Shown: positions 34,652-38,158, counted from the first letter of the stretch. The stretch: DNA of 64,000 nucleotides from Escherichia coli (GCF_013315695.1 NZ_CP054353.1); one strand, 5' to 3'. The notes: generated from the sequence alone by a model not told the origin. A program made the numbers and translations.

Positions 34652-35098
34652 TTATGAGCTGAGGGTTTGATTTAACAAAGCAAGTACCTGGTCGGCGTCG
34701 CCCTGTCGCAGTTGGTTGATAAAATCCTGGTGGATAATTTTGCGACACAGCGTGCCGATGATTTTGACCTGATCCTCTTCGCCACTTTGCGGCACGCCGA
34801 GGCAGATCCAGCAATTGACGTCTTCGCCGTCGCTGGCTTTCCAGTCAATGGCCTGCGCTTTGCGGGCGAATAACACGAACGGTTGTTTAACGCAGGCGCT
34901 TTTACCGTGCGGCACGGCGACACCGGAACCAAATCCCGTGGAGTGCATTTTTTCGCGCAGCAGCAGGGTTTGCAGGAACTGGTGTGAGTCGGTGATAAAA
35001 CCGTTTTGTAACGCCATTGTCGCCAACTGCTTCAGAACGGAATAAGCGCCATTGCCCTGAATATTCAGGTCAATACAGCTTGCAGTAAGTGCTGCCAT
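34652..35098 (-). CDS. frvA: PTS fructose-like EIIA component FrvA
   Basis: EIIA(Fru/Mtl/Ntr) His motif GVAVPHG; start MAALTASCID at 35098 (track ORF extends further upstream). Confidence 0.85.
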   Translation of the reverse strand: MAALTASCIDLNIQGNGAYSVLKQLATMALQNGFITDSHQFLQTLLLREKMHSTGFGSGVAVPHGKSACVKQPFVLFARKAQAIDWKASDGEDVNCWICLGVPQSGEEDQVKIIGTLCRKIIHQDFINQLRQGDADQVLALLNQTLSS

Positions 35099-35574
35099 TA
35101 TTGGATTCCATGAAAAAATATTATAGTTAATTGTAACGGCGGGGCGGTTTTGTGATGAGCGCGGATATGTCGTGAAGTCGTGACAATATAAGGCAGAGTG
35201 AAGGATAAATTTTGCGGTGTAAGGCACATATTGATGGGTAAAATAAATGCAGTGAATAAAAAATCATTATTTAATGATGTTGTGAATGTTTAACTGCCGC
35301 ACATGTTTTGCAGCAAGGTTATTTATATTTGTGGCTTATGAGTCAGCGTGAATTATATCTAATATTTTTTACGATATTTGGTTAAAAACGGCACTATTGT
35401 TATATTCCTCACGTTCCAGGAAATCAGCGGATTTACTCATATTATGCAGCGGGATACTATCCATCGGCCTGCTGAAGTTGGATTAAAAATTCGAAAGTGC
35501 ACACCTTATATTTCTCTATATACGTATTCCTTTTGGAAAGCGTAGGGTCTCTTTTATTTCAGGGAACGTAAATA

Positions 35575-36969
35575 ATGAAAAAATCGACATTATCTTTAGC
35601 CATCGGTTTATTATTGGCATGTAGTACCGGAATGGCAAAAACACAGCATTTAACGCTGGAACAACGCATGGCATTGCTGGAAGAACGCCTGGAAGCGGCA
35701 GAAATGCGGGCAGCAAAAGCAGAGAGCCAGGTTAAACAGCTGCAGACACAACAAGCCGCTGAGATCCGCGAAATTAAGGCTGCCCAGGGCAATACGCCGG
35801 TAAATGGACAGGCAACGGCGGAATCTGCAAAGAAAAATTCCACCTCACCTAATCTTTTGCTCTCAGGTTATGGCGATTTAAAAATCTACGGCGACGTAGA
35901 ATTTAATATGGATGCGGAAAGTAATCATGGCCTGCTGGCAATGACCAACGCTGATGTGAATAGCGATCCCACTAATGAACAGTGGAATCTCAATGGTCGT
36001 ATTTTGTTAGGTTTTGATGGTATGCGAAAACTGGATAATGGCTATTTCGCCGGGTTCTCCGCACAACCGCTGGGGGATATGCACGGTTCAGTAAATATCG
36101 ATGATGCGGTTTTCTTCTTTGGCAAAGAAAACGACTGGAAGGTCAAAGTAGGCCGTTTTGAAGCCTACGATATGTTCCCGCTGAATCAGGATACCTTTGT
36201 TGAACATTCCGGTAATACTGCGAACGATCTTTATGACGATGGCAGCGGTTATATCTATATGATGAAAGAGGGCCGCGGGCGCTCTAACGCTGGCGGTAAT
36301 TTCCTCGTCAGCAAACAACTTGATAACTGGTATTTTGAATTAAACACGTTACTTGAAGACGGAACATCTTTATATAATGACGGTAATTATCATGGACGCG
36401 ATATGGAGCAGCAGAAAAATGTTGCTTATCTGCGTCCGGTAATTGCCTGGTCGCCGACAGAAGAATTCACCGTTTCCGCAGCGATGGAAGCGAACGTGGT
36501 AAATAATGCTTATGGTTATACCGATAGCAAGGGTAATTTTGTCGATCAGTCCGATCGTACCGGCTATGGTATGAGCATGACCTGGAATGGCCTGAAAACG
36601 GATCCGGAAAATGGCGTCGTGGTTAATCTTAATACCGCCTATTTAGATGCTAATAATGAGAAAGATTTCACTGCCGGGATTAACGCGCTGTGGAAACGTT
36701 TCGAGCTGGGTTATATCTACGCGCACAATAAGATTGATGAATTCAGCGGTGTAGTTTGTGATAACGACTGCTGGATTGATGATGAAGGGACGTACACCAT
36801 TCACACCATTCATGCGTCTTATCAGTTCGCTAATGTGATGGATATGGAGAACTTTAATATTTACCTCGGGACGTATTACTCCATTCTGGATAGCGACGGT
36901 GATAAAAAACACGGTGATGATACTGATGACCGTTACGGCGCACGCGTTCGCTTTAAATACTTCTTCTGA
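35575..36969 (+). CDS. putative outer-membrane carbohydrate porin with N-terminal coiled coil (accessory gene)
   Basis: Signal peptide MKKSTLSLAIGLLLACSTGMA; heptad-like LEQRMALLEERLEAAEMRAAKAESQVKQLQTQQ; alternating beta-strand-like body; C-terminal ...RFKYFF aromatic terminus; AT-rich; no gene here in K-12 as remembered. Confidence 0.65.
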   Translation: MKKSTLSLAIGLLLACSTGMAKTQHLTLEQRMALLEERLEAAEMRAAKAESQVKQLQTQQAAEIREIKAAQGNTPVNGQATAESAKKNSTSPNLLLSGYGDLKIYGDVEFNMDAESNHGLLAMTNADVNSDPTNEQWNLNGRILLGFDGMRKLDNGYFAGFSAQPLGDMHGSVNIDDAVFFFGKENDWKVKVGRFEAYDMFPLNQDTFVEHSGNTANDLYDDGSGYIYMMKEGRGRSNAGGNFLVSKQLDNWYFELNTLLEDGTSLYNDGNYHGRDMEQQKNVAYLRPVIAWSPTEEFTVSAAMEANVVNNAYGYTDSKGNFVDQSDRTGYGMSMTWNGLKTDPENGVVVNLNTAYLDANNEKDFTAGINALWKRFELGYIYAHNKIDEFSGVVCDNDCWIDDEGTYTIHTIHASYQFANVMDMENFNIYLGTYYSILDSDGDKKHGDDTDDRYGARVRFKYFF

Positions 36970-36974
36970 TGAAG

Positions 36975-37003
36975 GCGCGGTGCTGGATATTTTCCGGCAC
37001 CGC
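36975..37003. terminator. hairpin between porin gene and rhaM (convergent)
   Basis: gcggtgc-tggatattttcc-ggcaccgc. Confidence 0.5.
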
Positions 37004-37009
37004 AACTCA

Positions 37010-37324
37010 TTAAGGCAGGTAAAACACTTCTTGCAGCTCGCTACTGACTGGGCTGTTATCCGGGTTAGCTGGCATAACGTCGGTCATATATTTCCACCAA
37101 CGTTGGCAAACATCAGTACTGGCTACCGCATTCCACCGTTCTTCAGATTCAATCTCTACCGTGGCAAACAGCAGATTACGCGCTTTGTCGAGGTAAATGG
37201 CGTAGTTATGTGCACCGTGAGATTTCAACACTGCTTCCAGTTCCGGCCAGATTGGATTATGCCGACGCTGATACTCTTCGTGGGCGTCGGGGTTAACCTG
37301 CATGACAAAGGCTTTGCGGATCAT
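37010..37324 (-). CDS. rhaM: L-rhamnose mutarotase
   Basis: 104-aa [33 protein letters not shown]...; downstream of rhaD. Confidence 0.92.
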
Positions 37325-37333
37325 GTTTGCTCC

Positions 37334-38158
37334 TTACAGCGCCAGCGCACTGGCGAGTGGTGTAACACCGAAACGCTGGCCGAGCGCTATCAGCTCTTCA
37401 CGACTGATGGTCTGTTTCATGCCGCCCATCGAATAAACCTTCACTAATACTTGTGCTGATTTTTCTGCGGTGTCGATTAAACCGAATGTTTCATCCAGTG
37501 TCGGACCGCTGCCGAAGACGCCGTGGAAGGGCCACAACACCAGCGAATGTTTTTGCATTTCCTGTGCGGTCGCCTGGCCGATTTCGTCCGTGCCGGGCAC
37601 CATCCACGGCAAAATGCCGACGCCATCCGGGAACACTACCAGACACTCGGTGCTGCCTTCCCAAAGCTGGCGAGTGAAGAGCGCGGTGTCGTTTTCCAGT
37701 ACGTAGGTAAGGGCGATCAGGTTGGTGGCGTGGCAGTGCATGATCACCCGATCTTTACCGTTGGTAGCTTTAATGCGCTCGCAGTGGGAGAGAAAGTGAG
37801 CCGGAAGTTCAGAAGTTGGAACGGCTTCGTTGGTTAGCCCCCAGAGAATATGGTAGCCCGCGCCGTCGCTGTCGACTTTTACGATGCCTAAGTTAGCCGC
37901 AGGATCAAGCTGGACGTTACGAAAGAATTTGCCGGAGCCGGTGACAATAAACGGTGTATTTGCCAGTAAAGGCATGGGCTGGCTGAGCGGGATATAGCGC
38001 GGTTGTGCATGAAAGTTGTCGTGATACGGTGCGATATCGGCGTCATCCAGGCGCAGCGTCAGGTTACCACCATTGCGCTCGTCCCAGCCTTTCAGCCAGG
38101 CGTCGGTGGTGGCTTTGATCATTCCCTGGACAAACCAGGACTGGGTAATGTTTTGCAT
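37334..38158 (-). CDS. rhaD: rhamnulose-1-phosphate aldolase
   Basis: Start [21 protein letters not shown] at 38158 (track ORF extends upstream); class II aldolase His ligands. Confidence 0.93.

Follow-up and report, generated by a model that had tools for sequence, protein, structure and literature searches.

We analyzed a 64,000-nucleotide stretch of Escherichia coli DNA (GCF_013315695.1, NZ_CP054353.1; hereafter the window) and focused on a gene lying between frvA, of the Frv phosphotransferase system (PTS), and rhaM, which gives the window the gene order frvRXBA-porin-rhaM. The open reading frame (ORF) begins with ATG and encodes a protein of 464 amino acids that starts with MKKSTLSL and ends in RFKYFF (Table 1). 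The name "carbohydrate porin" given to its product is the RefSeq annotation in a genome with 100% identity. The ORF is real rather than a chance ORF, as evidenced by an identical protein on at least 1000 contigs and by the presence of at least 80% of the coding sequence (CDS) in 2557 of 5426 complete E. coli genomes, including O157:H7, LF82, and Seattle 1946, without linked raf genes. The 90% identity cluster of the protein has 3990 members. An earlier reading of this stretch from the sequence alone (the original prediction) had described an AT-rich ORF of 464 residues between frvA and rhaM, accessory in E. coli and missing from K-12, and our data agree with this description. The GC content of the ORF is 0.449, and its GC content at third codon positions (GC3) is 0.465, below the 0.53 to 0.65 of the flanking frv and rha genes; the region upstream of the porin has a GC content of 0.357. 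In the K-12 strain MG1655, just 300 bp of intergenic DNA separate frvA (b3900) from rhaM (b3901). The predicted ORF itself stood, but the start given for it, 35099, is the first base directly after frvA and opens a noncoding intergenic region of 476 bp (35099 to 35574) that precedes the gene.

Profile searches placed the protein in the Pfam family Porin_8 (PF16966, "Porin-like glycoporin RafY"), with an expectation value (E) of 3.7e-154 over residues 104 to 464 and over the whole of the model (positions 1 to 372 of 372). All 42 sequences of our alignment (the window protein and 41 relatives) matched this family. Compared with RafY encoded on raffinose plasmids, the window protein showed 79% identity and 87% positives over 450 amino acids. 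We consider it highly probable that the gene is a chromosomal orthologue of the raffinose-plasmid porin RafY (TCDB 1.B.15, Pfam Porin_8), and this confidence is a joint one that applies to the whole explanation developed below, that is, to family, pore function, locus history, and expression taken together. Family membership, architecture, synteny, population frequency, and purifying selection rest on the data presented here, and we infer the channel properties, trimer formation, regulation, and substrates. The RafY family is small, with 233 clusters at 50% identity among 1.84 billion representatives. A scan of the protein against NCBIfam matched zero families, and thus the RefSeq name does not derive from an NCBIfam hidden Markov model match. 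The gene is already annotated in thousands of genomes, belongs to a characterized porin family, and has been mentioned in the literature; the homologue in O157:H7, which is not accompanied by rafRABD, was named rafY2 (PMC4809568).

Table 1. Features of the frvA-rhaM region, with positions counted from the first nucleotide of the window
Feature	Position	Strand	Remarks
frvA	34652..35098	-	
CRP-like site TGTTATATTCCTCACG	35398..35413	+	8/10 to TGTGA-N6-TCACA; conserved; putative function
Candidate sigma-70 promoter	35432..35460	+	-35 TTTACT 35432-35437, 17-bp spacer, -10 TACTAT 35455-35460; by-eye reading
Hairpin/palindrome ACGUAUUCC-UUUU-GGAAAGCGU	35521..35544	+	about 30-55 nt upstream of ATG; conserved
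Ribosome-binding site (RBS) AGGGAA	35561..35566	+	8 nt before ATG
Porin CDS	35575..36969	+	RafY-family (Pfam Porin_8) outer-membrane porin; RefSeq WP_000749944.1, "carbohydrate porin"
Signal peptide, residues 1-21 (MKKSTLSLAIGLLLACSTGMA, followed by K)	35575..35637	+	putative cleavage site; hydropathy, small residues at -3/-1
Periplasmic coiled-coil helix, putative Sugarporin_N type, residues 28-71	35656..35787	+	heptads, AlphaFold2, Pfam
Disordered low-complexity linker, residues 72-99	35788..35871	+	predicted local distance difference test score (pLDDT) <50 for residues 73-97
Predicted 16-strand beta-barrel, residues 100-464	35872..36966	+	C-terminal YFF
11-bp GC-rich stem-loop between convergent porin and rhaM stop codons	36977..37003	.	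folding
rhaM	37010..37324	-	

A megablast search against complete E. coli genomes recovered about 200 plasmid copies with about 86% nucleotide identity to the gene. In one of them the porin gene closes an operon that also encodes a LacI-type regulator, an alpha-galactosidase, a major facilitator superfamily (MFS) permease, and an invertase of glycoside hydrolase family 32 (GH32), and this rafR-rafA-rafB-rafD-rafY arrangement is known for raffinose plasmids (PMC4809568; PMC12987596). RafY of the pRSD2 type and the window protein share a length of 464 amino acids, the layout of signal peptide, coiled coil, linker, and barrel, the RFKYFF end, and a cysteine pair within VVC(D/N)N(D/G)CWID. In contrast to plasmid rafY, the window copy is chromosomal, sits at frvA/rhaM, and has no rafR, rafA, rafB, or rafD beside it. 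The cysteines of the pair (Cys395 and Cys399; 36757-36771; VVCDNDCW in the window) could form a loop disulfide.

We then asked about the locus in other enterobacteria. Orthologues with 75 to 85% identity lie tail-to-tail with rhaM in several Citrobacter species (including C. rodentium), Kluyvera, and Klebsiella, and these chromosomal genes share with the E. coli gene not only the orthologous position convergent with rhaM but also the upstream motif and the RBS block described below. In Klebsiella sp. B345, the genes before the porin gene encode a LacI-type regulator, a GH36 alpha-galactosidase, and a LacY-like permease (rafR-rafA-rafB), so that a chromosomal raf cluster is present at the rhaM-side porin locus of this strain. 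K. grimontii carries a different sugar cassette, located between porin and rhaM, which encodes a beta-helix protein and an MFS_2 transporter together with a regulator of the LacI type. One Citrobacter genome has the order fdhD - frvRXBA - azlDC - HTH/cupin (helix-turn-helix/cupin) - porin - (GntR, PTS enzyme IIC, GH4) - rhaM. Sugar genes are linked to the porin gene in Klebsiella sp. B345, in K. grimontii, and in the case of K. pneumoniae GlyP, whereas the E. coli gene stands alone. Because the Citrobacter genome keeps frvRXBA, porin, and rhaM in that order, the frv-porin-rha order is old. The original prediction regarded the gene as inserted between frvA and rhaM; the conservation of porin-rhaM across genera and the order in this Citrobacter genome speak against that view. 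Since the porin-rhaM arrangement is kept in Citrobacter, Kluyvera, and Klebsiella, the parsimonious reading of these comparisons is that the porin was most likely ancestral at the rhaM locus, with a later loss in lineages of the K-12 kind.

The locus is polymorphic among E. coli strains, with the following types: frvRXBA-porin-rhaM (the form of the window), a truncated yiiG followed by porin-rhaM with frv deleted, frvA-rhaM without porin (the K-12 form), frvA-rhaM-fucO-rhaD, and IS1-associated deletions. Many strains, including one urinary-tract and one wastewater isolate, have lost the whole of frvRXBA and part of yiiG and kept the porin gene by rhaM (loci L004, 5280-5970, and L020, 2425-2979). 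IS1 was found at the deleted locus in some strains (L022, 3288-4077; L006, 3922-4619). One IS1 deletion keeps just the last 75 bp of the porin gene, and another removes frv and porin fully; the 75-bp scar demonstrates that losses do occur. A candidate deletion scar in K-12, a 10-mer match (GATTTACTCA), had an E value of 1.2 and was rejected; no significant match to the porin locus was found there.

The region upstream of the porin gene was aligned for five chromosomal loci of four genera, with a mean identity of 45% and several conserved blocks. One of these is a CRP-like block, TGTTAT.T..CTCAC(G/A), which matches 8 to 9 of the 10 consensus positions. Wherever the sequence ahead of a chromosomal orthologue was long enough to look for it, the block was present (E. 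coli, three Citrobacter, Kluyvera, and Klebsiella); the plasmid copy has no CRP-like motif. As a stand-alone statistical claim, the CRP site was rejected, and we keep it as a cross-genus footprint. The scan also returned one-mismatch sites between rhaB and rhaS (41075) and ahead of rhaT (44170). The candidate promoter would place the transcription start near 35467 and the CRP-like site at -61.5; the GATTTAC sequence at this promoter is kept in Citrobacter. Closer to the gene, RNAalifold analysis of 8 orthologous upstream regions revealed a hairpin with 4 pairs that have changed on both strands of the stem and still remain complementary (folding of the single sequence gave -9.9 kcal/mol, z = -2.8). 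Pairing is kept in E. coli, Citrobacter, and Kluyvera and is weaker in Klebsiella. This hairpin could be a 5' untranslated region structure, a target of a small RNA or attenuator, or an operator. The block TTTATTTCA(A/G)GGAA, which includes the RBS, is kept in all orthologues. Downstream of the gene, the stem-loop between porin and rhaM folds strongly in both directions (-26.8 kcal/mol, z = -7.9 on the plus strand; -20.9 kcal/mol, z = -5.7 on the minus strand) and is likely a shared transcript-end hairpin lacking a U-tract. An Rfam scan of 34900-37200 returned nothing credible.

Could the gene be a silent relic, the leftover of a decayed chromosomal raf-like cluster that has been silenced and plays no present role in E. 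coli? The gene has no linked catabolic or permease genes, and there are no remnants of rafB, rafA, rafR, rafD, HTH-cupin, or azlCD in the 476-bp upstream region or in the whole 64-kb window. The low GC content of the upstream region, the loss of the gene by several routes in about half of the genomes, and the lack of rafABD in 22 of 45 rafY-positive isolates (PMC12987596) would all fit a relic. However, the coding sequence points the other way. Among four distinct E. coli alleles, the ratio of nonsynonymous to synonymous substitution rates (dN/dS) was 0.05 to 0.085, with dS up to 0.23, and a fifth E. coli copy differed from the window at synonymous sites only; dN/dS was 0.04 to 0.07 in comparisons with Citrobacter and Kluyvera where dS was unsaturated. 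The five chromosomal E. coli copies that we translated (window, L004, L019, L020, and L021) were all intact ORFs of 464 codons, and several genera share the RBS, the upstream motif, and the hairpin. The porin is under strong, long-term purifying selection at the protein level, which argues against a dead relic, and we consider this explanation improbable.

The predicted architecture is that of an outer-membrane beta-barrel with a signal peptide and a C-terminal aromatic residue. As the original prediction had claimed, the N terminus has the layout of a signal peptide, composed of MKK, the stretch STLSLAIGLLLA and CSTGMA, with a hydrophobic core at residues 4 to 13, small residues at -3 and -1, and likely cleavage after TGMA, before K. 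Orthologues have ANTG(F/M)A followed by KT at the equivalent place, and the AlphaFold2 model, built on the 42-sequence alignment (mean pLDDT, 80.8; predicted template modeling score, 0.71), forms a helix at residues 3 to 18 of the signal peptide. In the window allele, Cys16 (35620-35622) makes a lipobox-like LLLAC, a likeness that is probably meaningless; a lipoprotein reading was rejected, as this cysteine is missing in all chromosomal orthologues of the other genera that we examined and a normal signal peptidase I site follows. The mature protein has an N-terminal coiled coil, as evidenced by hydrophobic residues at heptad positions a and d (L28, M32, L35, L39, A42, A46, A49, V53, L56 .. I67, A70) and by a single modeled helix, residues 28 to 71, with block pLDDT values of 81 to 88 across residues 31 to 70. 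The original prediction was right about the coiled coil and overstated its length, which is about 44 rather than 50 residues. This N-terminal extension is missing from shorter, distant family members (about 350 to 390 amino acids), and the linker that follows it differs in length and sequence among orthologues. The rest of the protein is the barrel body, for which the model has 16 main strands between residues 100 and 463 and a long internal loop (residues 195 to 240) that bears the conserved YIYMMKEGRGRS. The anticipated richness in Asn, Gly, Asp, and Tyr was borne out as well, at 9.0% N, 8.8% G, 8.8% D, and 5.4% Y in the mature protein.

The architecture also bears on the question of which kind of porin this is. 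The original prediction correctly proposed an accessory outer-membrane porin with a coiled coil and assigned it to the LamB/ScrY or OprB family, and the corresponding explanation would be a sugar-specific porin of 18 strands, in which sugars bind to an internal "greasy slide" and transport is saturable. ScrY has a periplasmic N-terminal coiled coil of the Sugarporin_N family, to which the extension of the window protein may also belong, and an outer-membrane glycoporin role is common to ScrY, LamB, and the family of the window protein. Sugarporin_N, the ScrY-type periplasmic extension and the sole suggestive Pfam match besides Porin_8, aligned with residues 27 to 54 of the window protein at an E value of 0.06, and among the 42 aligned sequences it reached an E value of 0.001 or lower in 5 and of 0.1 or lower in 15. 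The barrels, however, are different. The profiles of LamB/ScrY (PF02264), OprB (PF04966), and KdgM (PF06178) found no match at an E value of 10 or lower in the window protein and its 41 relatives, and KdgM is a small 12-strand barrel compared with the 365 residues and 16 strands predicted here. When the model was compared with known porins, the highest values were obtained for OprP (24.0) and Omp-Pst1 (23.4), followed by Omp32 (23.1), VhChiP (22.6), DcaP (22.6), and OprB (19.6), and the lowest for ScrY (18.1) and LamB (18.0). These values suggest that the barrel is of the classical 16-strand kind, and in the model the N-terminal coiled coil is the sole part that appears common with ScrY. A LamB/ScrY- or OprB-type porin is therefore very unlikely. 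The likeness to the 16-strand trimeric porins OprP, Omp-Pst1, VhChiP, and DcaP is one of predicted fold, with identities of just 11 to 12% and sequence homology that is undetectable. A sequence search of the PDB returned no sequence-related chain, only chance matches to dehydroquinase (E of about 1), and members of the RafY family are without a solved structure.

What might a RafY-type porin do in E. coli? The secondary literature calls RafY a glycoporin for maltose, sucrose, and raffinose, and describes plasmid RafY as a large general-diffusion channel passing raffinose, sucrose, and maltodextrins. In K. pneumoniae, the RafY-family porin GlyP belongs to a glyR-permease-hydrolase-porin operon, and its up-regulation alone was enough for a fitness gain in nutrient competition (bioRxiv 10.64898/2026.03.29.715108). 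A Salmonella homologue is reported to be lactulose induced. Because of these published functions of RafY and its relatives, the window protein is most likely a wide general-diffusion pore for di- to oligosaccharides. A Sec signal peptide would direct export of the protein, and in the outer membrane it would take the form of a 16-strand beta-barrel; it would probably form a trimer, which a coiled coil probably of the ScrY type would hold or extend. By analogy with RafY, the channel would be wide and non-saturable and would admit to the periplasm solutes that OmpF/OmpC are too narrow for, among them sucrose, maltodextrins, and sugars of the raffinose family, from where the inner-membrane permeases that the strain already has would take up the sugars. 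Expression may depend on cyclic AMP-CRP and start from the gene's own promoter in the AT-rich upstream region. In this explanation, the E. coli porin would be an "orphan" at the ancestral enterobacterial position by rhaM, where some relatives have a full raf/oligosaccharide cassette, and about half of the E. coli lineages, K-12 included, would be without it, most likely through loss.

Several points weigh against this explanation. In the searchable literature, we found no report on the expression of the chromosomal E. coli copy, on its conductance, or on a phenotype, and with 21% of residues differing from RafY, pore size or selectivity could differ as well. Neither next to the porin gene nor elsewhere in the 64-kb window did we find raf genes or other genes dedicated to catabolism. 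AT-rich regions are often silenced by H-NS, and with an upstream region of 36% GC, the gene may be silent under laboratory conditions. Single CRP-like sites occur at chance level in the 64 kb (26 found versus 27 expected), so that only the conservation of the site counts. The candidate promoter is a by-eye reading and was not called by a tool; a consensus promoter scan did not return it and preferred a weak TTAAAA-18-TATATT at 35483-35512. Finally, the empty site of K-12 has about 150 bp without detectable similarity to the porin locus, and the loss in K-12 is thus deduced from outgroups rather than from a scar.

The idea of an entry pore tied to its neighbors, for rhamnose-containing oligosaccharides (as part of the rha regulon) or for the Frv PTS substrate, draws on the adjacency to rhaM kept in at least four genera but is hardly credible, given that porin and rhaM are convergent with a strong hairpin between them, that comparison of the porin upstream region with the control regions of rhaBAD/rhaSR and rhaT gave no convincing likeness (a 13-mer near frvA matched best), that the frv operon is missing beside the porin in most relatives and many E. 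coli strains, and that the co-oriented neighbors in relatives are raf or other sugar cassettes. Candidate RhaS/RhaR-type sites in the porin upstream region were rejected, as only short AT-rich words matched the rha control regions. Of the glycoside or oligosaccharide role in the original prediction, the carbohydrate part agrees with the family, and the suggested functional link to frv and rha is not supported, given the convergence with rhaM and the lack of likeness to rha promoters.

Returning to the RafY orthologue, we compared its gene with plasmid rafY and the Citrobacter orthologue along its length (window 35575-36969 versus L002 7925-9319 and L007 8001-9392). In their 3' two-thirds, the chromosomal gene and plasmid rafY are 86 to 95% identical at the nucleotide level, with a peak of 95% at codons 241 to 300, whereas the N-terminal thirds of the proteins are just 42 to 60% identical, and that of the window protein is closer to Citrobacter orthologues. 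Over codons 51 to 150, the E. coli gene was nearer to the Citrobacter orthologue, with 75 supporting sites versus 33 for plasmid rafY; over codons 251 to 450, it was nearer to plasmid rafY, with 102 supporting sites versus 30. The maximum chi-square value was 35.4, with a breakpoint near codon 224, and none of 1000 permutations reached 20 (P ≤ 0.001). GC3 was 0.35 in plasmid rafY, 0.465 in the E. coli chromosomal gene, and 0.59 to 0.64 in the Citrobacter, Kluyvera, and Klebsiella orthologues (0.64 in Citrobacter). The supporting sites, the chi-square value, and GC3 together indicate that one of the two genes, chromosomal porin or plasmid rafY, is evidently a recombinant. The rafY gene of the mobile raf operon may be the recombinant one, having its 3' two-thirds in common with the E. 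coli chromosomal lineage. The mobile rafR-rafA-rafB-rafD-rafY operon was also found in E. coli chromosomes, on an integrase-bearing island by tRNA-Phe (L023, 142-9319), and some genomes could therefore hold two RafY-family porins.

A further proposal can be made only tentatively, and we rate it as possible but doubtful: that the orphan RafY-type pore is kept by selection for a raf-independent role, as a large "alternative" porin altering the entry of bulky nutrients and possibly of antibiotics, phages, or colicins, and that plasmid rafY is the recombinant. Such a raf-independent porin, if real, would parallel GlyP in K. pneumoniae. Apart from this proposal, the genomes that carry the gene, among them O157:H7 and LF82 but not K-12, make up about half of those of E. 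coli and have with it an extra porin, probably of the wide-channel kind, which could affect gut oligosaccharide scavenging and outer-membrane permeability. The locus also shows how decay of a sugar-utilization cassette can leave a lone porin gene in place. For a gene that is already annotated, the discovery value is little and the practical interest modest; the raf-locus synteny, the presence/absence polymorphism, and the plasmid rafY mosaic are the results that we consider worth keeping.

Other differences were observed around the locus. Some E. coli strains have a gene for a FucO-like lactaldehyde reductase between rhaM and rhaD (L005, 5723-6871), as do Citrobacter, Kluyvera, and Klebsiella; the window strain (compare 37324-37334) and K-12 are without it. 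Identity between the window and K-12 falls to 84 to 86% in part of frvR (31330-31730) and in the intergenic DNA close to frvA (35100-35250), compared with mostly about 92 to 98% in the rest of the frv and rha genes. A mannose-family PTS operon with a PF07470 (Glyco_hydro_88) hydrolase gene was seen a few kilobases upstream of the porin in Citrobacter and Kluyvera (L008, L010, and L012, upstream of azlDC), with a sigma-54 activator gene called beside it in C. rodentium (L010) and Kluyvera (L012). In E. coli, frv occupies the place that corresponds to this mannose-family PTS operon.

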